NCBI GenBank assembly: GCA_900550255.1
Contig: URQZ01000006.1
Coordinates: 3,392 to 67,391 of the forward strand
Source: an uncultured Mycoplasmatota bacterium
GTDB taxonomy: Bacteria; Bacillota_I; Bacilli_A; RF39; UBA660
Length of the DNA stretch: 64,000 bases
Direction of reading: 5' to 3'
The position numbers and the translations under genes are program-made. Position 1 is the stretch's first letter; every line of letters starts with the position of its first letter. The notes beneath the pieces are model-generated. The model made no database searches and was not told the DNA's origin. It worked only from the letters and a program-made list of their open reading frames with translations. Shown here piece after piece: positions 7,568 through 53,908 of this stretch.

Positions 7568-8506
7568 ATGATAGAAAAAAAGATAAAAAGAATTAAAAAG
7601 GGAGGAACTTTAGTTTTATTTCCTAAGGAATCATGTGAATATCAAGAAACCTTTGATTATATGTTTGAAAACAGTGTTGAAATAAATGAAACTTTAACAG
7701 GTGATACTATTCATGAAATAGCACGAATAATTAATTCAAAAGAATTAGAACAATTAATTTTAATTGATTATATTGATTCATATGGGATTTTGTTACCGCT
7801 TATAAAGGGGAAAACAAATGTCAAATTGATATTTACCAGCTCTGTTGCAAATTTTACTAATACATTTGTTTTAAACAATTTTAAAAAAATTATTAATTTT
7901 TACAATTTTAATTTAATTAAAAAAATTGGATGTTTTGATTATAATTTATATATAACATTGAAAAAGGCAAAATATCGTGTTGAATATATAATGCCAGATA
8001 TAAAGATTAATAAAACAAAGCCAATTAAGTCATCTGACATTGCTATCATAGGTAACGATTATGATCCAAACAATAATTATTATAATATGTTGAGCGCGTT
8101 AAAATTGGTTGATTATAAAAGGGTTAAAGTTAGAATAACACAACCTGTGACACAATCTTTTATAAATTTATTTGATATAAAAGCTGAAAATATAGAAGAT
8201 GAACGAAAATTACAACTAAATAATGAATTAAATCTATATGTGAATTTTACTAATTCAAATATTAGTAAAATTTTGAAGAGTATGGATAGTGGGATACCTT
8301 GTATTGTTGGTAATGTTGAAATGTTTGATGATAATGAATTTTTGAAAAAAATGTTAGTTGTTAAAGGTGATGACAATATAAATGACATTGCATCAAAAAT
8401 TGACGCTGTACGAAAAAATAAAAAATTAATTATAGAAGAATATTTGAAATTTCGAAAAAAATATAGTAAAAAAGCTGAAACTCAATTTAAAAAATTTATG
8501 AAATAA
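7568..8506 (+). CDS. GT-B-like glycosyltransferase-domain protein, a paralogue of the C-terminal domain of the upstream gene
   Basis: 'LNLYVNFTNSNISKILKSMDSGIPCIVGN' parallels 'LNLYVTFTECAPMLPLESFESGVPCLVGN' in the previous protein. ATG at 7568 follows GAGG. Confidence 0.5.
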   Translation: MIEKKIKRIKKGGTLVLFPKESCEYQETFDYMFENSVEINETLTGDTIHEIARIINSKELEQLILIDYIDSYGILLPLIKGKTNVKLIFTSSVANFTNTFVLNNFKKIINFYNFNLIKKIGCFDYNLYITLKKAKYRVEYIMPDIKINKTKPIKSSDIAIIGNDYDPNNNYYNMLSALKLVDYKRVKVRITQPVTQSFINLFDIKAENIEDERKLQLNNELNLYVNFTNSNISKILKSMDSGIPCIVGNVEMFDDNEFLKKMLVVKGDDNINDIASKIDAVRKNKKLIIEEYLKFRKKYSKKAETQFKKFMK

Positions 8507-8521
8507 TGAAAGAGTGAAAAT

Positions 8522-9862
8522 ATGGAAAAAGTAACCGTATTATTTCAGAGTAGTCCTAATTATTCTGGAAATTCAAAAGTGATGTATGATTATATTAAGA
8601 GTAAATATAAAAATAAAATGAATTTGTGTTGGGTTATAGATAATAAAAAAGATTATGAAAATTTGAAAGAAAAACTTAACTGTGTTATGTACGGAAGTAA
8701 AGAAATGATGCAATTAATTTCAAAAGCAAATATTATTTTTACAACTCATGGGCAGTTAAAAGAGTATAAGCATGATAATCAAATTTATGTTAATCTTTGG
8801 CATGGCATAACTATGAAAAAACTTGGCTATATGATATCTGAAAAGAATATGGCTAAGCAAGATCAATTATATTGTGAACAATTACAAATTTGTACTGATT
8901 ACGTTATTGTCCCATCTAAATTTTGGCAATTGATTTTTTGTGCTATATTTAATGTCAATTTTTCTCATGTTTTGCCCCTTGGTTGTCCTAAATTAGATCC
9001 AATTATAAAAGCTGATGGCAAAGGAAATCTAGAAAAATTATTAGGAGAAGAAATTAAAAATTATAAAAAAATAATATATTATATGCCAACTTTTAGAAGT
9101 GGATGTGGAAGAAACGATTCTAATCCAAATTTAAATAATATTTTAAATTTAGAAGAATATAATGAACGTCTATTTTTAGATTATCTAGAAAATAATAATT
9201 ATTTATTATGTATAAAATACCATCCTGAAGAAAAATTGAATTTTAAGTATGATATATCAAATAATATCAAAATAATTGATGAGGAAAAACTTCAACTAAA
9301 TAATTTTTCTGTATATGATGTATTAAATGCGGCTGATTTATTAATTACCGATTATTCTTCACTTGGTTTAGAGTTTTCAATAAGTGATAAACCTGTTATT
9401 TATTTAGATACAGATTTGGAAGATTATCAAAAAAATAGAGGATTAATTTTTGATGACAAAGATTTTTGGTTTCAAGGAAATGATGTTAGCAATATAAAAC
9501 AATTACTTGATAAAATGGAAATTTATTTAAAAAAAGGAAAATACAAAAACAAAATGAAAGAAATATGGTTTGGCAATTTAAAAGATGGTGGTTTAGAACA
9601 AATATGTAATTATTTCTTTACAACAAATGGTTCTATTAATAATCAAATAAAATCAGGTGATAATTTAATATTTATTCAGCATAAGAAAATAGATGATTTG
9701 AATGAAAAAAATAAAAAATTAAATTTAGATAATGATTTTCTTAAAAGGAAAAATAAACAGCAAGAAAATGAATTAAATTTAATATATAATTCAAAATCTT
9801 GGAAATTGATGGAAAAAATTAGAAAAATAAAAAATAAATTTTTTAAATTTGTAAGAAAGTAA
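8522..9862 (+). CDS. CDP-glycerol glycerophosphotransferase (TagB/TagF family)
   Basis: Glyphos_transf hallmarks 'YVNLWHGITMKKLGY', 'IIYYMPTFR' and 'LLITDYSSLGLEF'. C-terminal K-rich coiled-coil tail. Confidence 0.8.
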   Translation: MEKVTVLFQSSPNYSGNSKVMYDYIKSKYKNKMNLCWVIDNKKDYENLKEKLNCVMYGSKEMMQLISKANIIFTTHGQLKEYKHDNQIYVNLWHGITMKKLGYMISEKNMAKQDQLYCEQLQICTDYVIVPSKFWQLIFCAIFNVNFSHVLPLGCPKLDPIIKADGKGNLEKLLGEEIKNYKKIIYYMPTFRSGCGRNDSNPNLNNILNLEEYNERLFLDYLENNNYLLCIKYHPEEKLNFKYDISNNIKIIDEEKLQLNNFSVYDVLNAADLLITDYSSLGLEFSISDKPVIYLDTDLEDYQKNRGLIFDDKDFWFQGNDVSNIKQLLDKMEIYLKKGKYKNKMKEIWFGNLKDGGLEQICNYFFTTNGSINNQIKSGDNLIFIQHKKIDDLNEKNKKLNLDNDFLKRKNKQQENELNLIYNSKSWKLMEKIRKIKNKFFKFVRK

Positions 9863-9882
9863 GTATAAAACTTTCTTTTTTT
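9855..9882 (+). terminator. Rho-independent terminator
   Basis: GAAAGT...ACTTTC hairpin plus TTTTTTT. Confidence 0.5.
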
Positions 9883-9936
9883 GCTGTTTTCTTTTTTAAT
9901 TTTAAATGCTATAATATGGATATTGGAGGTGTTACT

Positions 9937-11514
9937 ATGAATTTGTTATTGAAAAATGGTAAAAAAGTTTTGTTAGTTGTTTTTTCATTCTTTTTCATTT
10001 TTGGTGTTAAAGCATTAGAAAACAATTCTGTATCTAACATTAATAATCTTAGTAGTTGTGTTTTACAAAATTTAAATGGTAATAAATATTGTTTAGATGA
10101 AAATGGAGTAATGCAAAAGGGAATAATTAATGTAGATGGTACAAAATATTTCTTTGGAGAATACTCGGGAGTATTAAAATATGGATTTGTAACAGCACTA
10201 AATGGAGATGTGTATTATACCTCAAATGACGGAATAATAAGAACAGGAATCCAAATGATAAACGGAAATAAATATTATTTTAATGAAAATGGAATAATGC
10301 AAAAAGGTATAATTGATATAGATGGTACAAGATATTTCTTTGGAGAATACTCAGGAGTATTGAAGTATGACCTTGTGACAGCTTTAAATGGAGAAGTGTA
10401 TTATACATCGAATGATGGAGTAGTAAAAACAGGAATTCAAGAAATAGGCGGAAACAAATATTATTTTGATGCCAACGGAATAATGCGAAAGGGAATAATT
10501 GAAATAGATGGTACAAGATATTTCTTCGGAGAATACTCAGGGGTATTAAAATATGGATTTGTAACAGCTTTAAATGGAAATATATATTATACAGCAAATG
10601 ATGGAATAGTAAGAACAGGAATTCAAACAATAAATAAGAAAAAATATTTCTTTGGAGAGTATTCAGGAGTATTAAAATATGGACTCGTAACAGCTTTAAA
10701 TGGAGATGTGTATTATACAGCAAATGATGGAATAATAAGGACTGGAGTTCAAATAATAAATGGAGTTTTATATAAGTTTAATAGCGAAGGAAAATTAGAG
10801 AGTGGATGGACAACAAAAGCCGGCGCAACTTATTTTATGCAAGCTGATGGTACATTTTTAACGGGTTGGCATATAGTAATGGGTGAAAAATGCTTTTTCA
10901 ACTCATTAGGTCAACTTATTGGAAGAAATGTAAAAAGGATTATAGATGTTTCTAAATTTCAAGGTGAAATAGATTGGTATGCATTAAAAAATTCAAATAC
11001 TGTAGATGGTGTTATTTTAAGAATAGGATTAGGTAGTACATTACTTGATGAACAGGCTAAAAGAAATATTCAAAAGCTTAATGAATTGAATATTCCTTAT
11101 GGAATCTATTTGTTTAGTTATGCAGAAAATTCTCAAGAAGCAATTTGGGAAGCTGATTATACTAATAGATTAATAAAAGAATATGGAGCCAATCCAACAT
11201 TGGGAGTTTATCTAGATATTGAAAAATGGACTACTCATGCAGATGCTTCTGATAATATAAGTCAAGCAACTTATGAAGCAATTATTACAACTTATATAAA
11301 TAGAATGTCAAATTATGGCTATACAGCAAGAGTTTATACTGGTAAAAATTATGCCTTAAATAGATTAACAGAGTTAGCCCGTAGTTATGTCACTTGGATT
11401 GCTCAATATAATTATGTTTGTAATTATCCTGGATCATATAGAATATGGCAATATGGATCAGAGTATTATCCTGGAATAAATGGTGCGGTTGATACAAATG
11501 TTATGTTTAATTAA
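9937..11514 (+). CDS. GH25 muramidase (lysozyme/autolysin) with signal peptide and about 14 cell-wall-binding (CW_binding_1/choline-binding-type) repeats
   Basis: Signal peptide 'MNLLLKNGKKVLLVVFSFFFIFGVKA'. Repeated 'NGNKYYF.ENGIMQKGII.IDGTRYFFGEYSGVLKYGFVTALNG.VYYT'. C-terminal GH25 'IIDVSKFQGEIDWYAL...DGVILRIGLGST...GIYLFSYA'. Confidence 0.85.
   Translation: MNLLLKNGKKVLLVVFSFFFIFGVKALENNSVSNINNLSSCVLQNLNGNKYCLDENGVMQKGIINVDGTKYFFGEYSGVLKYGFVTALNGDVYYTSNDGIIRTGIQMINGNKYYFNENGIMQKGIIDIDGTRYFFGEYSGVLKYDLVTALNGEVYYTSNDGVVKTGIQEIGGNKYYFDANGIMRKGIIEIDGTRYFFGEYSGVLKYGFVTALNGNIYYTANDGIVRTGIQTINKKKYFFGEYSGVLKYGLVTALNGDVYYTANDGIIRTGVQIINGVLYKFNSEGKLESGWTTKAGATYFMQADGTFLTGWHIVMGEKCFFNSLGQLIGRNVKRIIDVSKFQGEIDWYALKNSNTVDGVILRIGLGSTLLDEQAKRNIQKLNELNIPYGIYLFSYAENSQEAIWEADYTNRLIKEYGANPTLGVYLDIEKWTTHADASDNISQATYEAIITTYINRMSNYGYTARVYTGKNYALNRLTELARSYVTWIAQYNYVCNYPGSYRIWQYGSEYYPGINGAVDTNVMFN
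10072..10925 (+). repeat. Coding tandem repeats of ~180 bp (three 20-aa cell-wall-binding repeats per unit), about four units
   Basis: Near-identical 60-aa blocks are visible in the translation. They generate the spurious antisense ORF 10280..10723. Confidence 0.8.
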
Positions 11515-11521
11515 GAAAAAA

Positions 11522-11552
11522 AAGATTGATAAATAAAGTCAATCTTTTTTTT
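11522..11552 (+). terminator. Rho-independent terminator
   Basis: AAGATTGA-taaataaag-TCAATCTT plus an 8-T run. Confidence 0.7.
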
Positions 11553-11621
11553 AAACTTTGGTAGGTAATATATTTATTGCTATATTGTCGTTTTTCCTGT
11601 ATAATTAACGTAGGTGGTAAC

Positions 11622-13748
11622 ATGAACTTATTAAAAAAAACATATAAAGATATTATTATCTTTTTAATTCCATTTTTAATATTTATAATATTGCTTTTTT
11701 CATATTACCCTGGTCTTATTACTTATGACGGTATTAATCAGTGGAATCAAGTTCAAAACGGAACTATTAATAATGCGCATCCATTTTTTAGTACATACTT
11801 TATGTTAATTATTTCAAAATTTTGGAATAGTCCAAGAGCGGTTTTAGTATTTCAAATCTTTATTTTTAGTTTCTTTTGGTCTATTATTTGTAATAAAACA
11901 AGAAAGAATAATTATGGTAGACAAGTAATATATACATTTTTAATAAGTCTTATTCCGATAATTAGTATGTATTCTATAACTTTATGGAAAGATGTTTTGT
12001 ATTCATATTATCTTATGATGTTAGCTTTTCTTACATATTATTTTGCTAAAGAAAAAAAATATAAAATGAATATTTTTGATTATATATGTTTAGGATTGTT
12101 ATTGTTTTTAATTTATAGTTATAGACATAACGCAATAGTTGCTGTAGTTTTATATTTTATAATTTTTACAATTTTAGTTTTAAAAAATAATAAAAATAGT
12201 ATAAAAAAGCTTTTAATAGTTTATTTAACATTTGGTGTCCTTCTTTTTGCGATATCAATTCCTAAATCAATATATTTGGAAAAAGAAGTCAAAAAGAAAG
12301 ATGAAGTGGCAATTGGTACGGTAAATCAGTATATAACATGGATTTTTGGCTCTTATATACAAGAAGAGAAAATATCAAAAAACGATTTGGAATTTTTAGA
12401 TAATATTATTGATATAAATTATTGGAAAAAAAGGTATAATCCATTTTTAATAAATTCAACATTCAATCCAGACAAAATAAATGAAAAATATATGATTAAG
12501 CATCAAAAAAAGTATCAAGATTTGTTTATAAAATATGTTTTGAAAAATCCAGGAATTTTTATTAAACATTATTTGAATGCAGATTCATTATTGATTGGGA
12601 TAAACTCCATCGATTATGGTTACATATATGTATATCCATTTACGGAATGGGAAAAAGGGGATTATGGCTTTGATAAAAGTATAAATAGCAAAATTCCAAA
12701 AATAGAAGAAGAAAATACAGAACTTATTAATTATACATATGATGGAATTTTAAAGTATTTTTATCAACCTGGATTGATTTTATATATATCATTATTAATT
12801 ACAGTATATTTATGTCATAAGAATAAAAATAAAAAATACTTTTTACTTTTATTACCAATGTTTTTAAATACTCTATCTTTGTTACCAGTTAATTTAGCTC
12901 AAGATTTAAGATATGTATACATAAACTATTTAACTTTAATATTACTAGGATTATTTGTTATACAAAAGGAAAAAAGAAGTGATGATATGAAAAACTATAC
13001 AAAACCAGAATTAAAACAAAAATCAAAAAAAAATCAAAAGATTTTATTGATAATCCCTGCCTATAATGAAGAGGAAAATATATTAAAAACCTATAAAACA
13101 ATTGTTAACTACAACAAACAAAACAAAACAAATTATGATGTTATAGTCATTAATGATGGTTCAACAGATAAAACAAGTGAAATATGTTTTAATAACCATA
13201 TACCAACAGTTAATCTTATTCATAATCTTGGTATAGGTGGCGCTGTTCAAACAGGATATAAATATGCTTATGAAAATGCTTATGATATAGCAATTCAATA
13301 TGACGGAGATGGACAACATGATGTTAGATATGTAAAAAAAATTGTTGAACCTATTTTAAATGGAAAAGCTGATTTTGTGATTGGTTCTAGATTTGTTAAA
13401 AAAAGCGATGAAAATTTTAATTCTACATTTGCTCGAAGAATAGGAATTAACATAATATCATTTTTTATAAAATTGGTTTCGAAGAAAAAAATATATGATA
13501 CAACATCTGGATTTAGAGCATGTAATAAAGCAATAATTCGCGAATTTGCATTTGAATATCCACTTGAATATCCTGAGCCAATAACAACGGTTGAATTAAT
13601 AAAAAAAGGTTATAGAGTTTCAGAAGTCGATGTAAAAATGAATGAAAGAAAAGGTGGCACTTCATCAATTAAATCTTGGAAAAATATATATTATATGATT
13701 AATGTTGTATTATCCATTTTAATAATTGGTTCAAGGAGGCAAAAATAA
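11622..13748 (+). CDS. Fusion protein: N-terminal ~11-TM GT-C-like membrane domain plus C-terminal GtrB/DPM1-like GT2 (polyprenyl-phosphate sugar synthase-like)
   Basis: C-terminus 'LLIIPAYNEEENI...VIVINDGSTDKT...QYDGDGQHD' matches GtrB-like GT2. The N-terminal first loop has 'YYPGLITYDGINQW' and many TM helices. ATG at 11622 follows TAGGTGGT. Confidence 0.6.
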   Translation: MNLLKKTYKDIIIFLIPFLIFIILLFSYYPGLITYDGINQWNQVQNGTINNAHPFFSTYFMLIISKFWNSPRAVLVFQIFIFSFFWSIICNKTRKNNYGRQVIYTFLISLIPIISMYSITLWKDVLYSYYLMMLAFLTYYFAKEKKYKMNIFDYICLGLLLFLIYSYRHNAIVAVVLYFIIFTILVLKNNKNSIKKLLIVYLTFGVLLFAISIPKSIYLEKEVKKKDEVAIGTVNQYITWIFGSYIQEEKISKNDLEFLDNIIDINYWKKRYNPFLINSTFNPDKINEKYMIKHQKKYQDLFIKYVLKNPGIFIKHYLNADSLLIGINSIDYGYIYVYPFTEWEKGDYGFDKSINSKIPKIEEENTELINYTYDGILKYFYQPGLILYISLLITVYLCHKNKNKKYFLLLLPMFLNTLSLLPVNLAQDLRYVYINYLTLILLGLFVIQKEKRSDDMKNYTKPELKQKSKKNQKILLIIPAYNEEENILKTYKTIVNYNKQNKTNYDVIVINDGSTDKTSEICFNNHIPTVNLIHNLGIGGAVQTGYKYAYENAYDIAIQYDGDGQHDVRYVKKIVEPILNGKADFVIGSRFVKKSDENFNSTFARRIGINIISFFIKLVSKKKIYDTTSGFRACNKAIIREFAFEYPLEYPEPITTVELIKKGYRVSEVDVKMNERKGGTSSIKSWKNIYYMINVVLSILIIGSRRQK

Positions 13749-36605: not shown

Positions 36606-36623
36606 AAATCTGAGGTGATTATC

Positions 36624-37100
36624 TTGAGTGAGTTTATAAAAAAAGTTAAAAAAGATGGAAATGTTAGAAATATTGATGAAGCCTTTAAGGAATATCCTGT
36701 TGAAGAAGAAATTCATCAAGGTAATTTTGAATATTATGTTGCAGAAAAAATTATCAAATATGGTAAATATAATATAGGTGATATTGTTTTTGTAAGTAAG
36801 TATAAATATGAAAGTGGTTTGCCTGGAAAAGAGCACTTATTTGTTATTATTGACAAAGATAATAGAAGTGTTCCACTTGAATATTTTGGACTATTAATAT
36901 CATCTAACTTAAAAAAATTAAAATATAAAAGCAATAAATTATTAGAAAAAAATAGTAAAAATAATTTAATAAAAAATAGTTTAGTAAAATGTGATGCTAT
37001 CTATGTTGTAAAAGAGGATAGTATAGTTGGTAAAATTGGAAAGGTTGATATAGAATTGATTGAAAAATATAAACAAATATATAATAATATAATTAAATAA
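36624..37100 (+). CDS. PemK/MazF-like endoribonuclease-toxin homologue with a ~45-aa N-terminal extension
   Basis: 'NIGDIVFVSKYKYESGLPGKEHLFVII', '...LISSN...' and 'SLVKCDAIYVVKEDSIVGKIGKVDIELIEKYKQ' follow the MazF/PemK pattern (GDIv.v.f...G.E...RP.vV / SV.lcDQi...d..Rl..kiG.l....m..i). TTG start 5 nt after GAGGTGA. Confidence 0.5.
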   Translation: MSEFIKKVKKDGNVRNIDEAFKEYPVEEEIHQGNFEYYVAEKIIKYGKYNIGDIVFVSKYKYESGLPGKEHLFVIIDKDNRSVPLEYFGLLISSNLKKLKYKSNKLLEKNSKNNLIKNSLVKCDAIYVVKEDSIVGKIGKVDIELIEKYKQIYNNIIK

Positions 37101-37113
37101 AAAGGAGATTTTT

Positions 37114-37389
37114 ATGACAAAAAAAGAATTAAAAAATGCTACTAATTTTTTTGAAACTGAAACAAAATTAATAGAAAAAGAATATGAATTAGTAAAAAAA
37201 ATAATCGCAATCAGAAATGATAAACATATATCACAAAGAGAATTATGTGCACAAATAGGAATGAAACAACCAGCTTTAGTTAGAATCGAAAATCAAAATA
37301 ATTCACCATCACTTAAAACAGTATTGAAAATATTAGAACCACTCGGTTATACACTAGAAATAAAAAAAATCACAAATAGTGATTTATAA
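37114..37389 (+). CDS. XRE-family HTH protein (putative antitoxin/regulator)
   Basis: 'ISQRELCAQIGMKQPALVRIENQNNSPSLKTVLKILEPLGYTLEI' is an HTH_XRE. Confidence 0.7.
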   Translation: MTKKELKNATNFFETETKLIEKEYELVKKIIAIRNDKHISQRELCAQIGMKQPALVRIENQNNSPSLKTVLKILEPLGYTLEIKKITNSDL

Positions 37390-39933: not shown

Positions 39934-40755
39934 ATGTTGAATGAAAAAAATAAGGACATTTTAACAAAACTTCTTGAACATATTTTAAAAGTAAAAATTA
40001 CTAATATTGAAATAAATAATATAGAACGTAACAGTAGAAATATAAAAATTAAGAGAAAACATTTAGATGCGCTTCTTACTACAAATGAGGGAAAAATTGG
40101 AATAGAAGTTAACGCTAACAATAAAAGTTATGTTCATCCACGAAATTTTGCTTATATATGTGATACCTATGCAAGTCATACATTAGTTGGAGAAATTTAT
40201 AATGAGGATATAAAGATTATACAAATTAATTTTAGTTATAGCCTTAATGATTCAATACCATATAGAATTTATAGAATAAAAGATGATCACGGAAATTTGT
40301 ATGTTGAAAATTTTGTTATTTATGATTATAATATGGAATACTATAAAAAAATTTGGTATACTAATAATGAAAGAAAAATAAAAAAAGACAAATATCTGAT
40401 AATGTTAGATTTGGAAAGCGAAGAGCTAAAAAAAATAGCAAAAAAAGATAAGGTGGTAAATAAATATATGGATGAATTAGTAAATTTAAATGAAAACCCA
40501 AAATTTAGAGAGTATATGACTGCAGAAGAAGATGCTAGGAAAATATATAATTCAGAAATGTATGAAGCTCGACAAACAGGTATGCAAGAAGGTTTAAAAA
40601 ATGGACTAAAACAGGGAAAGGAGCAAGGTTTAGAACAAGCAACTAAAGAAATAGTTGAAAAAATGTTAAAAGAAAAAATGAAAGAAGAAGAAATTTCTAA
40701 ATTTACAGGTTTATCGTTAGAAGAAATAAATAAAATCAAAATAATAAATGAATAA
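39934..40755 (+). mobile_element. Rpn-family recombination-promoting nuclease/putative transposase (PD-(D/E)XK, Transposase_31/YhgA-like). The conserved N-terminus appears to extend upstream of the first ATG.
   Basis: 'NKDILTKLLEHIL' and a C-terminal 'QTGMQEGLKNGLKQGKEQGLEQATKEIVEKMLKEKMKEEEISKFTGLSLEEINKI' repeat tail are typical of Rpn/YhgA. The in-frame upstream codons encode 'KYDKPFKEI', which matches the family N-terminus, but there is no ATG/GTG/TTG between AGGAGGG (39864..39870) and 39934. Confidence 0.6.
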
Positions 40756-47960: not shown

Positions 47961-49423
47961 TAATTATCAGCCTTTCTTTTTTTATTTTTAATATTTAAAA
48001 ACAGTGGCCTATTTTTAATTTTATTATTTGATTTTCTAATAATAGCGTAGTTTTGACTTTTAATATCAAAAGGAGAAATTGGAGATAAGTAGGAAACTCC
48101 TTGCATTTCTAGACTACATAGTTTGGTAATAAATATTAATCCAGCAATTATAAATCCAACTAATCCACAAAATAGTGAGAAGAAGATAAAGATGAATCGC
48201 CATAATCTTGTAGCGTTTACAAAATCTATATCAGTATATAAAAGACCACATATTGCAGTAATGGCAACAATTATAACAACAATTGGTGATATAATACCGG
48301 CTGCAACAGCAGCATCACCAAGTACTAATGCTCCAACAATACTTATGGCAGATCCCATCGAAGTAGGTATTCTTATATCGCTTTCTCTTAAAATTTCGAA
48401 GGTTGTAATTAACATGATTACTTCAAAGGCTGTAGGGAAGGGAACTCCTTCTCTTTGAATAGAGAGAGATATTAAGAGTTCATTTGGAATCACTTGTTGG
48501 TCAAAAGTAGTTATTGCAATATAGAAACTTGGTGTTATGATTGTTAAAATAAAGGCTATAATTCTTAAGATTCTTGTAAAGTTTGAATTTATTTCTCTTT
48601 GGTAATCATCTTCTGGAGATTGTAAATAATCAACAAATAGTGCTGGTGTTATTAAAACAAATGGAGAATTTTCAATTAGTATAATTATTCTTCCTTCTAA
48701 CAAGTATTTACTTGCTAAATCTGGTCTTTCTGTACTTTTAAGTTTAGGAAAGGCTGATTTTTGTTTTTCATTTATATATTCTCTTATAGTTCCACTATCT
48801 AAAATACCATCAATATCTATTGTTTGTAATTTCTTTTTTATTTTATCGACGTTTTTTTTGTCTACTATATCATTTATAAAGGCAATTGTTACTTTTGTTT
48901 TTGTTCTTCGACCTACAGTAGTTTCATCAAACCATAAGTTATAATCTTTGATTCTTTTTCTTATTAAACCCAGGTTAGTGGAATTGTTTTCAGTAAAGCT
49001 ATCTTTTGGTCCTCTTACAACTGATTCACTCGTTGATTCGGTTACACCACGATCTAGGGTATTTTTGGTTTCAACGACAATGGCTTTATTTTCTTTTTCT
49101 ACAAAAATAACAGTGTATCCGCTAGATAGGTGAAAACAGACATCATCATATGTTGTAACTATTTTTAAATGACTATTATAAATAGTGTTTTTTAATGATT
49201 TAAATAGGTTTTCAAAGAAAGAATGGCCATCTCTTTTTACATATTCTCCTAAATCTTTCATTAAAAAATCACTTATTTTATCATCACTACTTACACTTTC
49301 TAAATAGATATATAATATTTCTTTTTTATTTATTTTTATTTTTCTTGAAACAAGATCACTACTGTTTCCATATTTGTTTTGAATTGTTTCAAGTATTTTA
49401 TCTATATTTTTATCTAAATTCAT
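47960..49423 (-). CDS. Spore germination protein, GerAA/GerKA-type subunit
   Basis: GerA-family core 'PFPTAFEVIMLITTFEILRESDIRIPTSMGSAISIVGALVLGDAAV'. Confidence 0.8.
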   Translation of the reverse strand: MNLDKNIDKILETIQNKYGNSSDLVSRKIKINKKEILYIYLESVSSDDKISDFLMKDLGEYVKRDGHSFFENLFKSLKNTIYNSHLKIVTTYDDVCFHLSSGYTVIFVEKENKAIVVETKNTLDRGVTESTSESVVRGPKDSFTENNSTNLGLIRKRIKDYNLWFDETTVGRRTKTKVTIAFINDIVDKKNVDKIKKKLQTIDIDGILDSGTIREYINEKQKSAFPKLKSTERPDLASKYLLEGRIIILIENSPFVLITPALFVDYLQSPEDDYQREINSNFTRILRIIAFILTIITPSFYIAITTFDQQVIPNELLISLSIQREGVPFPTAFEVIMLITTFEILRESDIRIPTSMGSAISIVGALVLGDAAVAAGIISPIVVIIVAITAICGLLYTDIDFVNATRLWRFIFIFFSLFCGLVGFIIAGLIFITKLCSLEMQGVSYLSPISPFDIKSQNYAIIRKSNNKIKNRPLFLNIKNKKRKADN

Positions 49424-49532
49424 AAATATCCCTCTATTTCTATATTATTATTACCAAAAAAAGGAATTTTATTATAAAAAATGTATTTGAATTTTCTGTT
49501 TTTTTCTTTTATAATTAGAGTGGTGATGAAGT

Positions 49533-50756
49533 ATGAAATATGAAGTTTTAATTAGTTCAATTGATCATAGTGGAAGAGGAATTTCTAGAATTGATAATAA
49601 AATTGTTTTTGTTCCTAAGACTTTGATAGGTGATAGATGTATTGTTAAAATTACAAAAACGAAAAAAAATTATTTTGAAGCGGAATTAGTTGAACTATTA
49701 GAAAAAGGTCCAAAAAGAATAAAGGCTGTTTGTCCTTATTTTGATATTTGTGGTGGCTGTGATTTACTTCATATGTCATATAAAGATCAATTACGTTATA
49801 AGGAAGAAAAGGTTAAAAATATTATTTCAAGGTATACAAGTTTGGATAAAAAGATTGTAAAGAAGATAATACCTTGTGATTCTAAGTATTTTTATCGTAA
49901 TAAGGTTAATTTTAAAGTTAGAAAAAAAGTTGGTTTTTATCAAAAGAAAAGTTATGATATAGTTGAGGTTAAGAGATGTCTAATTGCTGATAGTAATATA
50001 AATGATATTTTAAACTTAATAAGAAATAATATAAATCTTGATTTTGTCAAAGAGATAACTATTAGGTCTAGTTTAAAGAATGATGACGATATGGTTATCT
50101 TTCACACAACTAAAAAAATTAATGTTGATGCTTTAAAAGGTATTGTTAGTTCAATTGTTTTTTATGATGGTAAAAAATATGAAGTTGAATATGGCAAACC
50201 TTATATAAGTGATAAAATTGGTAAGTATGAATTTATAATTTCGCCCGATTCTTTTTTTCAAGTTAATACAAGACAGGTTGAAAATTTATATGATCAAGTT
50301 TTAGAGTATGCTGATTTAAAAAAGACGGATACGGTTTTAGATTTATATTCAGGTACGGGGACAATTGGAATTTATTTAAGTAGTAAAGTTTCAAAGGTTA
50401 TAAGTATTGAGATTAATAAGGATGCTAATAAAGATGCCATTAAAAATAAAAGGTTAAATAATGTTGATAATATTGAATTTATGTGTGGGGATGCATCTGT
50501 TTTAATCGATCAAGTAAAAGATAAAATAGATGTTTTAATTGTTGATCCTCCACGTTCAGGTCTTAATGATGAATGTATAAATAACATAATTAAAACTAAG
50601 GCTGATAGAGTTGTTTATGTTTCCTGTGATCCAATAACTCTAGCACGCGATTTGGAAAAATTAAAAAGTAAATATGATACTTTAGAGATAACACCAGTTG
50701 ATATGTTTTGTAATACTTATCATGTTGAGTGTGTATGCGTGTTAAATAGGCGATAA
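49533..50756 (+). CDS. rlmD: 23S rRNA (uracil-5-)-methyltransferase RlmD/RumA (TRAM plus Fe-S plus SAM MTase)
   Basis: 'CPYFDICGGCDL', SAM motif 'LDLYSGTGTIG' and 'DPPRSGL'. Confidence 0.85.
   Translation: MKYEVLISSIDHSGRGISRIDNKIVFVPKTLIGDRCIVKITKTKKNYFEAELVELLEKGPKRIKAVCPYFDICGGCDLLHMSYKDQLRYKEEKVKNIISRYTSLDKKIVKKIIPCDSKYFYRNKVNFKVRKKVGFYQKKSYDIVEVKRCLIADSNINDILNLIRNNINLDFVKEITIRSSLKNDDDMVIFHTTKKINVDALKGIVSSIVFYDGKKYEVEYGKPYISDKIGKYEFIISPDSFFQVNTRQVENLYDQVLEYADLKKTDTVLDLYSGTGTIGIYLSSKVSKVISIEINKDANKDAIKNKRLNNVDNIEFMCGDASVLIDQVKDKIDVLIVDPPRSGLNDECINNIIKTKADRVVYVSCDPITLARDLEKLKSKYDTLEITPVDMFCNTYHVECVCVLNRR
50718..50734 (+). repeat. Direct repeat copy 1 (TATCATGTTGAGTGTGT) inside the rlmD 3' end
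   Basis: The identical 17-mer recurs at 52821..52837. Confidence 0.6.
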
Positions 50757-50969
50757 ACCCTTATAAATAAAGAGAAAACTAACTATTCAGTAGGGGTCAA
50801 AAAATGGTGAAAAAACGATAAAAAATTGATATTTTTATTGATTTTTGAAAAAAATATTGTTGAGGTTGTTTGTGGAGAATATGTTTCCTCATACTATATA
50901 AGATTGTATGTGTTGTAGAGTTAATAATAAATATAAATTATGAAAGCATGTTTTGAAAGAAGGAAAAAT

Positions 50970-51533
50970 ATGAAAAATATAATGATACTTGGAACTTGTA
51001 GAACAGGTAAAACTACATTTTCTAAATTATTACAAAAAGAACTAGAAAATTATCAAATTATAGAAGTTGATGCTATTATTTCGGCATTACAAAGCACTTT
51101 TGATGATATTCAGATTGGTTTTACTCATGATTATTTGAAATATAATAAATTATCTCAATTTATCAATATATTACTTCAAAAAAATAAAAGTAGATTAGGA
51201 AATGAATATAGTTATATAATTAATTCAGATTCAATAATGCCAGTGGATTTAATTAATTATTTTGATTTATCAAATACTATAGTTTATTATTTTGTGAATT
51301 CTAGTTTGACCGTTGAGGAAATATTTAATAATTGTAGATATTATGATGATGAAAATCAATGGACTTCAAAAAGAACAAATGAAAATTTATTAAATCATAT
51401 AAAAAAAGCAAAAGAATTTGAAAATCAAATAATAGAACAATGTAAAAAATATAATATGAAATATATTGATACATCTTATAACAGAGAAAGTATTTTTAAT
51501 GAATTGCTAAATGAAATAAAGGAGAATATATGA
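50970..51533 (+). CDS. P-loop kinase-like protein (small AAA/nucleoside-or-small-molecule kinase fold)
   Basis: Walker A 'ILGTCRTGKTTFSKLL'. ATG at 50970 follows AAGGAAAAAT. Confidence 0.55.
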   Translation: MKNIMILGTCRTGKTTFSKLLQKELENYQIIEVDAIISALQSTFDDIQIGFTHDYLKYNKLSQFINILLQKNKSRLGNEYSYIINSDSIMPVDLINYFDLSNTIVYYFVNSSLTVEEIFNNCRYYDDENQWTSKRTNENLLNHIKKAKEFENQIIEQCKKYNMKYIDTSYNRESIFNELLNEIKENI

Positions 51534-52087
51534 AAAATATAATAATAATTGGACCATCTAGAGTTGGAAAATCTACATTGGCATCTATATTGTGTGCGAA
51601 ATATAATTTTAATTATATGAGTGGTGATAGCATTAGAAATGCTTTCATTAATATATATCCTGAACTTGGATATACAGTAGAAAATACTATTGAGAATAAA
51701 GATTTTTGTAAATTTATTAACTTTATAATTAATGAAAACAATATACATTTAAAAAGAAATATTTATTATGTTATTGATTCGGCTGATATTTTAATTAAAA
51801 ATGCTAAAGAAATATTTAAAAATTCTTTAATAATTGGTATTGGATGTAAAGAAATTTCTGCTGAAAAATTGAAAAATAAAATATTAGAACATGATATTAA
51901 TCTTGATTGGACTTATGGATACCGTGAGGAAGATCTTTTATCTATTTCAAAAGAAACAATTAATAATAGTATAAATCTTTATAATGAATGTATTTTAAAT
52001 AATATTTGTTATTTTGATACTTCATTAGATAGATATGAAACATATAATGATATTTATAAATATATAGAAAGCAATATTGAGGTATAA
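51530..52087 (+). CDS. P-loop kinase-like protein, diverged tandem paralogue of the upstream gene
   Basis: 'MKNIIIIGPSRVGKSTLASIL'. Aligns along its length with the upstream protein (FINxxxxN..L......Y.I.S..I). ATGA overlap after AAGGAGA. Confidence 0.55.
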   Translation: MKNIIIIGPSRVGKSTLASILCAKYNFNYMSGDSIRNAFINIYPELGYTVENTIENKDFCKFINFIINENNIHLKRNIYYVIDSADILIKNAKEIFKNSLIIGIGCKEISAEKLKNKILEHDINLDWTYGYREEDLLSISKETINNSINLYNECILNNICYFDTSLDRYETYNDIYKYIESNIEV

Positions 52088-52089
52088 TT

Positions 52090-52686
52090 ATGGATAGAAT
52101 ATTTTTATTTGATCTTGGAAATGTTTTGGCAAAATCTTTAGATGATTATGGTTTGTATAACAAATTAAATTGTAAAATTCCCTATGATGAATTTTTAAAA
52201 TACTGGTGGGGTGATGAGTTAGTTTTAAAAGCTCATATGGGACTTGCTACAGATGATGAACATGTTGAAGCGTTATTGAAATTCTGTAAGAGTGATTTAT
52301 CAATTAAACAATTTTATGAAATATATAATGGTTTAGATAATTCTTTATATGATGATACTGTTGAAATTATAAATGACTTAAAAAATAAAGGGTATAAGAT
52401 CGGAATCTTATCCAATCTTAGATTAATGGATTACAAAAGATATAAACAACAAATTGAAAAAATAAATTTTGATTATATATTTTTATCATATGAAATGAAA
52501 TGTATAAAACCATCTAGCGATATTTATTTACAAGTGATTGATGTACTTGATTGTGAAGCAGATAATATAATATTTTTTGATGATAATCAAAGGAATGTAA
52601 ATGGCGCAAAACAACTTGGCATTAACGCTTATCAAGTAACAGGCGAAAATATAAAAGAAATTTTTTATAAAATAATAAATATATAA
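52090..52686 (+). CDS. HAD superfamily hydrolase, subfamily IA (YihX-like phosphatase)
   Basis: Motif I 'IFLFDLGNVL', motif II 'ILSN' and motif IV 'FFDDNQRNV'. Confidence 0.65.
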   Translation: MDRIFLFDLGNVLAKSLDDYGLYNKLNCKIPYDEFLKYWWGDELVLKAHMGLATDDEHVEALLKFCKSDLSIKQFYEIYNGLDNSLYDDTVEIINDLKNKGYKIGILSNLRLMDYKRYKQQIEKINFDYIFLSYEMKCIKPSSDIYLQVIDVLDCEADNIIFFDDNQRNVNGAKQLGINAYQVTGENIKEIFYKIINI

Positions 52687-52793
52687 TATAAATTTATGCT
52701 AATTGCTTTATAAGAAGATTAATACATACATAATAAACATTCTTAATAGTTATACGTTTATTATGAAGTAGTCAATTATAAACATACACATAA

Positions 52794-52871
52794 AATACAG
52801 TTATTCATAATAGACATTCATATCATGTTGAGTGTGTGACGATATTACATCGAAAAAAGATTGAAAAATAA
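52794..52871 (+). pseudogene. Remnant of an rlmD 3' terminus (encodes ...SYHVECVTILHRKKIEK*)
   Basis: Shares the 17-mer TATCATGTTGAGTGTGT at 52821..52837 with the rlmD 3' end and encodes the same YHVECV..L.R C-terminal motif. It sits in otherwise noncoding DNA. Confidence 0.45.
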
Positions 52872-53046
52872 AAGCTTTTGTTAGAATTGAAAATCAAGTT
52901 TAGATGGATAAGGTGACTCTACATTTAATGATAAAACATTTGTTGTTTTTGAAAGGCTTAAATTAATAAAAAATACAAAATGTAAATATAAATTGATGGA
53001 AATATTATTCTTTAATGATAAGACGTTTCAATAGAAGGAGTAAATA

Positions 53047-53841
53047 ATGGATTATAAACAAATAAACAAATTTGTAAAAGTGATACAAAAACATGAAAAT
53101 ATAAATGTTATGGTCAAAAATATTACAAGTGATACTATTTTATATAATTATCAAGAAAATAACATTTTTGTTTCTGCTAGTATTATAAAAGTTCCTATTA
53201 TGTTAGCTATATTAAATTATGTGTTGAATAGTGATATTAAATTATATAGTTACATTAATATAGATAAAGATGATATATTGAGTGATAATAAATGTTTTAA
53301 AAAGGAAATATATCAATATAGCATAGAAGAATTAATAACATGGATGATTACAGTGTCTGATAATTCATCTACAAATGTATTAATTAAATATTTAGGTTTT
53401 GAAAAGATTAACAAATATTTTAAAGAAATAGGATTAAAAAATACTAAATTAGAGAGATATATGCTTGATGAGGAAGCTATAAATAAAGGTAAAAATAATT
53501 ATACTTCACTAAACGATATGTATAAATGTTTTAAATATATAATAAATAAAGAAATTTTGACAAATGAATTTTGCGATTTAGCACTAAGTATATTATATAA
53601 ACAAAAGGTAAATAATCAAATTAATAAATATATTAAAAATATTAAATTTGCACATAAAACAGGATCCCTTGAGTATTTGAATAGTGATGTTGGCATTTTT
53701 GAATTAAATAAACAAATATATTTTATTGGAATTTCAGTATACGATACTCCAGAGAAAAATGGAGATCGAGAAAATGTTGGAAGATTATCCGAAATAATTT
53801 ATAAATATATTCTGGAGCAAAATTTATTATGTAGTAGTTAG
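53047..53841 (+). CDS. Class A beta-lactamase-fold serine hydrolase without a signal peptide
   Basis: 'SASIIKVPI' (SxxK), 'VSDNSSTN' (SDN) and 'HKTGS' (KTG). No N-terminal signal sequence. Confidence 0.6.
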   Translation: MDYKQINKFVKVIQKHENINVMVKNITSDTILYNYQENNIFVSASIIKVPIMLAILNYVLNSDIKLYSYINIDKDDILSDNKCFKKEIYQYSIEELITWMITVSDNSSTNVLIKYLGFEKINKYFKEIGLKNTKLERYMLDEEAINKGKNNYTSLNDMYKCFKYIINKEILTNEFCDLALSILYKQKVNNQINKYIKNIKFAHKTGSLEYLNSDVGIFELNKQIYFIGISVYDTPEKNGDRENVGRLSEIIYKYILEQNLLCSS

Positions 53842-53908
53842 TTACACAAAAACAATTATTTATAATTGATTATTATATGATTTAAGTGTAAAAAGAAAGG
53901 GAATAGCT

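Follow-up and report, generated by a model that had tools for sequence, protein, structure and literature searches.

In the 64,000-nucleotide stretch of contig URQZ01000006.1 analysed here (the window, taken at its full length), which comes from an uncultured Mycoplasmatota bacterium, the rRNA methyltransferase gene rlmD carries near its 3′ end a 17-bp sequence that recurs downstream, and three genes, coding for two P-loop kinases (K1 and K2) and a HAD phosphatase, lie between the two copies. What is this segment, how did it come to stand in the end of rlmD, and does it move? A preliminary description had read it as an element integrated into the 3′ end of the gene, with unusual cargo. We find that it is indeed an insertion; it is not a one-off, however, and sequence comparison places it in a large family of small cassettes with conserved ends at a known attachment (att) site. 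Taking all parts together, the best explanation, which we consider likely, is that segment 50735-52837 represents a 2,103-bp site-specific mobile cassette that has no recombinase of its own, is mobilised in trans and carries nucleotide-type cargo.

Insertion in the 3′ end of rlmD

The rlmD gene (49533-50756, + strand) encodes the 23S rRNA m5U1939 methyltransferase; its product matches TIGR00479 (rumA) with E = 7.8e-96, above the cut-off, as well as the Pfam families TRAM and tRNA_U5-meth_tr. The gene is chimeric: native sequence runs to 50734, the last six codons and the stop (CVLNRR, 50735-50756) are cassette-derived, and the reading frame ends ...YHVECVCVLNRR followed by the stop codon. The window has a G+C content of 24.9% and contains spore-germination genes, with a gerA operon upstream of rlmD. 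Close copies of the region are found in human gut metagenomes, and its relatives are metagenome-assembled genomes (MAGs) labelled uncultured Bacilli, Tenericutes or Lactobacillales.

The window contains exactly two copies of the 17-mer TATCATGTTGAGTGTGT, both on the + strand. The left copy (attL core, 50718-50734) covers the Y-H-V-E-C-V codons of rlmD and the right copy (attR core) lies at 52821-52837, positions and reading frame being those given in the preliminary description. The chance expectation is 0 (100 shuffles, even with 2 mismatches allowed). The right copy opens a short frame, YHVECVTILHRKKIEK and stop (52821-52871), which is preceded by stop codons. The remainder of this frame (TILHRKKIEK and stop, 52838-52871, + strand) is the displaced native 3′ end of rlmD and is identical to the C-terminus of the 411-residue RlmD alleles in strains with an empty site.

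Such strains were predicted from the window, with rlmD ending directly in the downstream remnant, and they exist. Clustered at 90% identity, this RlmD groups with alleles of 407, 408 and 411 residues. Three of four inspected 411-residue alleles (P0148, P0150 and P0153) end ...CNTYHVECVTILHRKKIEK, and conspecific alleles with at least 97% identity have ...YHVECVTILHRKKIEK as their end, which represents the empty site. A human gut locus with the same gerA-rlmD synteny (L093) gives the exact breakpoints. Window positions 49001-50734 align to it at 99.5% identity and positions 52821-52880 at 100%; both alignments are contiguous, they overlap in one copy of the 17-mer, and the segment between the repeats is absent. 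Because the two alignments share this single copy, the insert comprises 2,103 bp and has the direct repeats as its exact boundaries. The segment was inserted by recombination within the 17-bp core overlapping the Y-H-V-E-C-V codons; rlmD gained a replacement tail of six residues, and the native tail of ten residues was pushed downstream. The proposed integration into the 3′ end of the gene, with a supplied end and a displaced original one, is thus borne out: empty sites exist, the remnant matches the ends of rlmD in relatives, and the repeat is not a chance match.

In RlmD, about 10 residues separate the glutamate of the H-V-E motif from the C-terminus, and the same is true of E424, the general base of E. 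coli RumA (PMC1904294). If the two residues are equivalent, as their position suggests, this would explain the conservation of the site across phyla.

Conserved cassette ends and the cassette family

The insert consists of a left end (LE), the three genes and a right end (RE). The LE (50735-50969, + strand) starts with the replacement rlmD tail and its stop, followed by about 150 bp of conserved non-coding sequence. It contains motifs at 50786-50804 and 50874-50894, a hairpin CATAC-N11-GTATG at 50890-50910, a -10-like box TTGTAGAGT at 50913-50921 and a Shine-Dalgarno sequence at 50958-50964, and it is about 85-90% identical to left ends that surround unrelated cargo in distant hosts. Left ends share a common plan across cassettes. 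They begin with a replacement tail and stop (e.g., CVLNRR, CVLNLK or AVLKLK), continue with conserved A/T-rich sequence containing palindromes, and finish with GGAGAATATGTTTC(C/A)TCATACCA-N7-TGGTATG and a TTGTATAAT-like box, beyond which the sequence is cargo-specific.

The RE (52687-52820, + strand; conserved from about 52722) is likewise kept in cassettes with unrelated cargo. In the window, it contains an inverted repeat CATAATAAAC/GTTTATTATG (52729-52765), TAGTCAATTATA (52769-52780) and TATTCATAAT (52802-52811). Across cassettes, the RE begins just past the cargo stop codon and consists of an inverted repeat CATAATAAACA ... TGTTTATTATG, then TAGTCAGTTATA plus TATTCATAAT, and finally the core. 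Since three loci (L045, L058 and L105) have other LE or RE types, these motifs are family traits, not absolute requirements. At L045 (13122-14589) and L058, the RE has two direct repeats of TTCTTAAGTAG and the LE is devoid of the usual motifs; because these ends differ, the family must be wider than the motif used to find it (see below).

The LE may supply expression signals for the cargo. A search of Rfam with positions 50600-53100 returned no known RNA at E up to 1, and a scan for consensus promoters and terminators showed no enrichment and no intrinsic terminator; the -10-like box is therefore only a suggestion, made from its conserved position.

We scanned Joint Genome Institute (JGI) metagenomes with a 21-nt left-end motif and obtained 32 loci. 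Most of these consist of rlmD, the core, one to three units (an LE of ~190 bp, cargo, an RE of ~115 bp and a further core) and a displaced rlmD tail. At least 13 different rlmD backgrounds were counted, all from uncultured low-GC gut Bacilli. The cassettes measure 1.1-3.3 kb and stand in tandem at the H-V-E-C-V codons, with the cargo always on the rlmD strand. The displaced tails are host-specific (HVETVCVLKKK, HVEVCALLESKNSL, HVETICVMERK, HCESVTVLEKKI and HIECVSVLHRKNFDK, each followed by a stop). The identity between RE and host tails shrinks to CATGTNGA, which locates the crossover in or beside this sequence.

The cargo is diverse. Among the sets are an S66 LD-carboxypeptidase (MccF-like), GNAT_C with GNAT, Imp-YgjV with a histidine phosphatase, transporters of the major facilitator superfamily (MFS), AbiE/AbiJ, RhuM/Fic, a methyltransferase with RhuM, an EEP-family protein, a response regulator, MCRA/TetR, and the kinase duo and trio.

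A scan of genome contigs with RlmD yielded distant relatives only (35-50% identity), and the species of the window was not among them. In one of these, a mouse-gut MAG (L018), the RlmD of which is ~40% identical to that of the window, a 3.3-kb insert occupies the same codons; its first ~190 bp match the left end of the window insert at roughly 85-90%, and its last ~110 bp match the right end at about three-quarters. This first cassette (8147-11448) carries AbiEi/AbiEii and an AbiJ-like protein (PDC-S32). A second cassette follows (11448-11797), the first gene of which encodes a response regulator; the contig ends within this cassette.

Literature searches on integration at rlmD/rumA, on integron-like elements in Firmicutes and on cassettes that lack an integrase gave no description of recombinase-free 1-3-kb cassettes that share their ends and form arrays at rlmD, and the family is apparently previously undescribed.

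Movement between species

Several cassettes are shared by hosts that are otherwise only distantly similar. Over 1,217 bp, the S66 cassette (1,247 bp) shows 99.2-99.8% identity among hosts in which the adjacent 400 nt of rlmD are 64-69% identical or unalignable. The YgjV/His_Phos cassette is 96-98% identical in three hosts with 67-70% identical rlmD genes; it is the sole unit in two of them and the second unit in another. In a related species (L088), the kinase-kinase-phosphatase trio itself occurs as a cassette that has an LE and an RE of its own and is followed by the displaced tail HVENVAYLELK and stop. There, the cargo proteins are 69% (K1), 78% (K2) and 78% (HAD) identical to those of the window, and the flanking proteins 47% (RlmD), 59% (GerAA) and 38% (the downstream 526-aa protein). 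Judged by these comparisons, members of the family have evidently moved between species in recent times. Flanking homology is limited to one side, where it spans 14-17 bp, which is insufficient for homologous recombination between such hosts, and site-specific recombination is thus a reasonable inference.

States of the site within the host species

Within the host species, the site occurs in at least six states, and in every alternative state homology with the window stops at base 50734. Besides the empty site and the trio, we found 'duo' strains without K1 (L008, L012, L014 and L032), a trio accompanied by a 92-aa open reading frame (ORF) (L007), and a two-cassette array (L105) in which a unit with RhuM/Fic and 100-aa and 101-aa ORFs is followed by one with MCRA, TetR and a 91-aa ORF, the same native tail standing at the end. 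At a further locus (L101), there is an MCRA/TetR unit and a deletion that extends into the downstream HAD gene.

The duo strains differ from the window in several respects. The boundaries of the K1 difference coincide exactly with the ORF (window 50970-51533 versus L008 5990-6010). The starts of K1 and K2 both lie inside a common 16-mer, ATATGAAAAATATAAT, the copies of which are 560 bp apart, so a deletion between them would convert a trio into a duo. Duo strains also have a different LE type (CVLNLK and stop). Their rlmD is only 94% identical to that of trio strains, whereas the sequence from K2 onwards is 99.75% identical, indicating recombination within the locus.

Cargo of the window cassette

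K1 (50970-51533, + strand) has 187 aa and the P-loop GTCRTGKTT; K2 (51530-52087, + strand) has 185 aa, the P-loop GPSRVGKST and an SGDSIR motif. K2 overlaps K1 by ATGA, and the gene for the HAD-IA phosphatase (52090-52686, + strand; motif I FDLGNV; Pfam HAD_2, E = 5e-15) begins 2 nt past the stop codon of K2. For K1, the start at 50970 is likelier than an ATG at 50940, because a Shine-Dalgarno sequence (AGAAGGA) precedes the former and the trio of the related species lacks the extension. The upstream ATG (50940-50969) would add MKACFERRKN to K1, and MKFCFERRKS stands before the first kinase in duo strains; this stretch, kept in trio and duo and absent in L088, might represent an N-terminal extension or a leader peptide, or be fortuitous.

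The two kinases are tandem paralogs of about 185 aa, as previously suggested from their sequences (27% identity over the full length, E = 4e-10). The YihX-like assignment of the phosphatase holds as a resemblance (YihX, PDB 8pno, E = 8e-17); the match to NCBIfam PRK09456, the family of the glucose-1-phosphatase YihX (E = 3.7e-24), reaches 85.5 bits against a cut-off of 295, marking a relative of YihX and not an equivalog.

Both kinases have the P-loop core fold of nucleoside monophosphate (NMP) kinases. Their nearest known counterparts are small-molecule kinases of this fold, namely adenylate, UMP-CMP and cytidylate kinases, NRK1, and the gluconate and shikimate kinases. All scores with curated families (Pfam ADK, NCBIfam adk and cmk) are below cut-off: the best adenylate kinase score of K2 is 27.6 bits with PRK14528 (cut-off 195), and AAA_18 scores 29.3 bits for K1 and 23.5 bits for K2 (cut-off 29.4). 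Sequence comparison with the PDB yields marginal matches only (NRK1, E = 0.014), and the families of both proteins consist solely of unnamed proteins from gut MAGs. The structural model of K1 (pLDDT 89.5) gives UMP-CMP kinase and NRK1 as best Foldseek matches. Nevertheless, structure searches could not separate the NMP-kinase-fold families for K1 and K2; the comparison returns a flat list of such enzymes, which includes chloramphenicol phosphotransferase and the tunicamycin-resistance protein TmrD.

The genomic neighbourhoods of homologs indicate a link with nucleosides and nucleotides. A homolog of K1 is the last gene of an operon, where it is preceded by an NT5C-nucleoside hydrolase fusion and a gene resembling nucleoside deoxyribosyltransferase. 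Homologs of K2 follow an MFS transporter gene near PnuC, NUDIX, Maf and His_Phos genes, or a glycoamylase-like gene in a NUDIX/NT5C/Ham1/thymidylate-synthase neighbourhood. Given the NMP-kinase fold and these operons, an ordinary module for salvage or housecleaning of nucleosides, nucleotides or related metabolites is the leading, though not a proven, reading of the cargo, and we regard the chances that it is correct as even. K1 and K2 keep the same residues (D33/34, D122/126, W127/131 and R168/172), and it is thus probable that they perform the same chemistry on different substrates or act jointly. A sequential scheme, with K1 as nucleoside kinase and K2 as NMP kinase, was dropped on account of these shared residues.

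The cargo had initially been considered unusual, and a role in small-molecule modification or immunity had been proposed; the fold turns out to be generic. The corresponding alternative, namely that the trio is an anti-phage module acting on nucleotide pools or an antibiotic-inactivating phosphotransferase cassette, is suggested by the company it keeps: sister cassettes contain AbiEi/AbiEii/AbiJ-like, RhuM/Fic, MccF-like S66 peptidase, GNAT and MFS genes. The two resistance proteins in the structural list and a weak match of K1 to Pfam CPT (E = 0.03) point in the same direction. PADLOC, however, does not recognise the trio as a defence system (no match for K1 or HAD, and for K2 only one with E = 0.0065), and the homologs adjoin nucleoside hydrolase, NT5C, deoxyribosyltransferase-like, NUDIX, Maf, Ham1 and PnuC genes, not defence islands. 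We therefore consider such a role unlikely.

A proposed recombinase acting in trans

None of the cassettes encodes a recombinase, and the window insert has three ORFs only, in agreement with the earlier statement that it lacks an integrase. No recombinase-like ORF was detected by a motif scan of the window, and none was seen on inspection of the flanks of related loci. A tblastn search with the recombinases ORF56 and ORF57 of phage Φm46.1 gave no match, either in the window or across the ~1.16 Mb covered by related loci. The only recombination-related ORF of the window (39934-40755), 10 kb upstream of rlmD, encodes a PD-(D/E)XK 'transposase' (PF12784, an Rpn/YhgA-like recombination-promoting nuclease).

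The site itself is well known from other bacteria. The attB/core of Φm46.1 in streptococcal rum is an 18-bp sequence, GCATCACGTGGAGTGTGT, with variants ACATCATGTGGAGTGTGT and GCATCACGTTGAGTGTGT (PMC4288039). The window repeat aligns with both published variants and has a position identical to that of the 18-bp core. In streptococci, integrative and conjugative elements (ICEs) and integrative and mobilisable elements (IMEs) with a single serine integrase use the same gene, with direct repeats of 2-21 bp and a swapped 3′ end, and CTn5 of Clostridioides difficile can also use it (PMC4701971, PMC5704250). Prophages of Erysipelothrix are flanked by rlmD (PMC12785378), and tandem accretion at rum is documented (PMC5053989). 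A 76-kb viral contig with 36% G+C (L110, IMGVR_UViG_3300046030_000054) ends with GmrSD, DUF2513, the rlmD core (locus position ~392-414, - strand) and a displaced tail, HVECVTVLKRVGK and stop, which corresponds to a prophage at the same site in another lineage.

The rum/rlmD elements (Φm46.1, ΦSsUD.1, the ICESp1108 group, IME_SpnAP200_rumA, CTn5 and φEr670) thus share with the cassettes the core, the replacement of the gene tail, short repeats and tandem accretion. In contrast to the cassettes, they are 10-60 kb long and encode a serine integrase themselves; the integrase gene of the ICEs contains attR. Compared with the Φm46.1 group, the cassettes have conserved ends of their own and no similarity to Φm46.1 beyond the core.

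By analogy with these elements, the recombinase that mobilises the cassettes would be encoded outside them, at another place in the same cell. A large serine recombinase from a prophage or ICE with rlmD as its target is the best candidate, since use of this core is documented for that class. An excised circular form would carry RE-core-LE as its attachment site. By inspection, the reconstructed attB and RE-core-LE show weak dyad symmetry centred near GTTG|A, with arms AATA(C)/(G)TATT in attB and GAACAC/GTGTTC at the RE-core-LE junction. A site of the Xer/dif type for core plus RE was rejected, since the palindromic CATAAT...ATTATG arms are ~27 bp apart and not 6 bp; this comparison was made by eye with the dif sequences of Bacillus subtilis and E. 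coli.

Several observations speak against a mobile cassette of this description. As no recombinase was identified, both mobilisation in trans and the assignment to serine recombinases rest on analogy. No excised circular form was observed, and a search with the RE-core-LE sequence expected for the circle (386 bp) gave no match in INPHARED phages, PLSDB plasmids (distant mode) or IMG/VR. For large serine recombinases, an attP of ~50 bp suffices, which leaves ~300 bp of conserved cassette ends unexplained. Moreover, the K2-HAD pair is not always found in cassette form: in a related Bacilli MAG (L080, 5939-7280), K2 (64% identical) and HAD follow rlmD after 23 bp, and LE, RE and displaced tail are all missing. 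This locus represents either a cassette fixed by loss of its ends or the type of genome that supplied the cargo. The flat structural list described above also counts among these points, as it bears on the nucleotide-type cargo. Motif scans of IMG/VR with the left and right ends gave a single match (L031), which was discarded as chance because it lies inside a GC-rich coding region.

Alternative explanations

Long conserved arms are more typical of the attP of tyrosine integrases, and the cassette ends fit such a site at least as well, making this a serious rival to a serine recombinase. The arrays could accordingly be a dedicated, integron-like capture platform, in which a chromosomal recombinase, of the tyrosine or another class and not borrowed from a phage or ICE, recognises the long LE and RE arms. 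The conserved ends (~190 bp and ~115 bp) with their inverted and direct repeats do look like arm-type sites, the arrays show a single cargo orientation and uniform sizes, and no phage or ICE with these ends was found. Nevertheless, there is no recombinase gene beside any array, the core coincides with a site known for serine integrases, and the variation in RE and LE types (L045, L105) shows that long arms are not strictly required. We regard this as a tentative alternative, clearly less probable than mobilisation by a borrowed enzyme.

Less probable still is an inert leftover of a larger ICE, IME or prophage at rlmD that lost its integrase and transfer genes and no longer moves as a unit. Elements that keep attL and attR and have no integration or transfer genes are known as cis-mobilisable elements (CIMEs; PMC5704250), and this is what the window insert looks like. 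Decay and tandem accretion have been described as the origin of CIMEs at rum and at other sites (PMC5704250, PMC5053989), and the trio is old in the lineage, as its occurrence in a related species at 69-78% protein identity indicates. CIMEs such as CIME19258/CIME302 of Streptococcus thermophilus resemble the cassettes in that they are flanked by attL and attR and stand in tandem with other elements at a single att site, with accessory or defence genes as cargo. They are, however, decay products of individual ICEs or IMEs, whereas the cassettes are uniform small units with shared ends, arrays of their own and interspecies spread. This uniform architecture argues against simple decay, as do the more than a dozen unrelated cargos with the same short ends and compact layout, the identical cassettes in several species and at different array positions, and the empty, trio, duo and other states within one species. 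No parent element with matching ends was found in the phage, plasmid or IMG/VR collections. On balance, we think decay improbable.

Finally, one could suppose that the 17-mer recurs by chance or through local duplication of the rlmD 3′ end, and that rlmD has the three genes as its original neighbours, as the arrangement at L080 without cassette ends might suggest. This reading has a negligible probability and is already refuted by the empty-site strains, by the expectation of 0 for a chance 17-mer and by the recurrence of the architecture in many hosts.

Comparison with other cassette systems

A recombinase-less cassette mobilised in trans has precedents. In staphylococci, the staphylococcal cassette chromosome (SCC) and SCC-like cassettes without ccr genes insert into the 3′ end of rlmH (orfX), where they are flanked by direct repeats of ~15-18 bp and form composite arrays. 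The recombinase-less SCC-like cassettes are mobilised in trans by Ccr serine recombinases. The rlmD cassettes share with them the 3′ end of an rRNA methyltransferase gene, the direct repeats and the arrays, which amounts to a likeness of mechanism only. They differ in using rlmD and not rlmH, in their hosts and ends, in their much smaller size and in having no ccr-like gene present. The cargo of SCC-type elements likewise includes resistance and anti-phage genes (see bioRxiv 10.1101/2023.03.17.533233).

Integron cassettes resemble the rlmD cassettes in being small units of one to three genes, co-oriented and arrayed at a single site, with diverse cargo. To our knowledge, integrons are essentially absent from Firmicutes. 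Unlike integrons, the rlmD arrays have no adjoining IntI gene, attI or Pc, and what lies upstream is the gerA operon or other housekeeping genes. Also, each rlmD cassette seems to carry its own upstream leader, unlike integron cassettes. LE and RE each contain a hairpin-forming inverted repeat, which is not organised like attC (R''-L''...L'-R'). The rlmD cassettes thus fit ccr-less SCC-like cassettes best in behaviour and integron arrays best in layout, while formally they fit the definition of a CIME.

Other features of the region

A second variable slot (52881-53855, + strand) lies outside the cassette, directly after the native rlmD stop. It holds strain-variable genes and has no core, LE or RE at its boundaries. 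In the window, it contains a class-A beta-lactamase-like gene (53047-53841). Empty-site strains (L093, 7246-8821) have a 61-aa ORF, RhuM and a 128-aa ORF in its place, and an LE-like GGTTGTTTCAG motif stands at the start of the slot in L093. In other strains (L014 and L032), an extra S66 peptidase gene and an MFS gene are situated between bla, HAD3 and HD. Further upstream in the window (36615-37389), an ORF for a MazF/PemK-like toxin (161 aa) precedes one for an HTH_3 protein (91 aa), and the two possibly form a toxin-antitoxin pair.

Implications

Integration of large phages and ICEs at rum/rlmD is known from streptococci. The situation described here differs in that discrete 1-3-kb recombinase-free cassettes with common ends form arrays at this site and are near-identical in different species of uncultured gut Bacilli. 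For annotation, these cassettes explain why the C-terminus of RlmD varies from strain to strain and why orphan rlmD 3′ fragments occur downstream of the gene. The conserved ends can also serve as an easy query with which to catalogue the cargo pool.

If mobilisation in trans is correct, the cassettes would constitute a compact route by which accessory, resistance-like and anti-phage genes are exchanged within the human gut microbiome. In addition, they would represent a natural set of substrates for site-specific recombinases, which is relevant to genome engineering with large serine recombinases. It is possible, though in our judgement somewhat short of an even chance, that low-GC gut Bacilli possess a previously undescribed platform of cassette arrays, akin to integrons or SCC, at the rlmD codons for the catalytic glutamate. 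On this reading, small units of one to three genes, each with a leader, would be captured, stacked and passed from species to species by a recombinase that the cassettes do not encode, be it a serine integrase borrowed from a phage or ICE or an unrecognised dedicated enzyme. If this is true, the 3′ end of rlmD would be a general site for the exchange of accessory and defence genes in the phylum.

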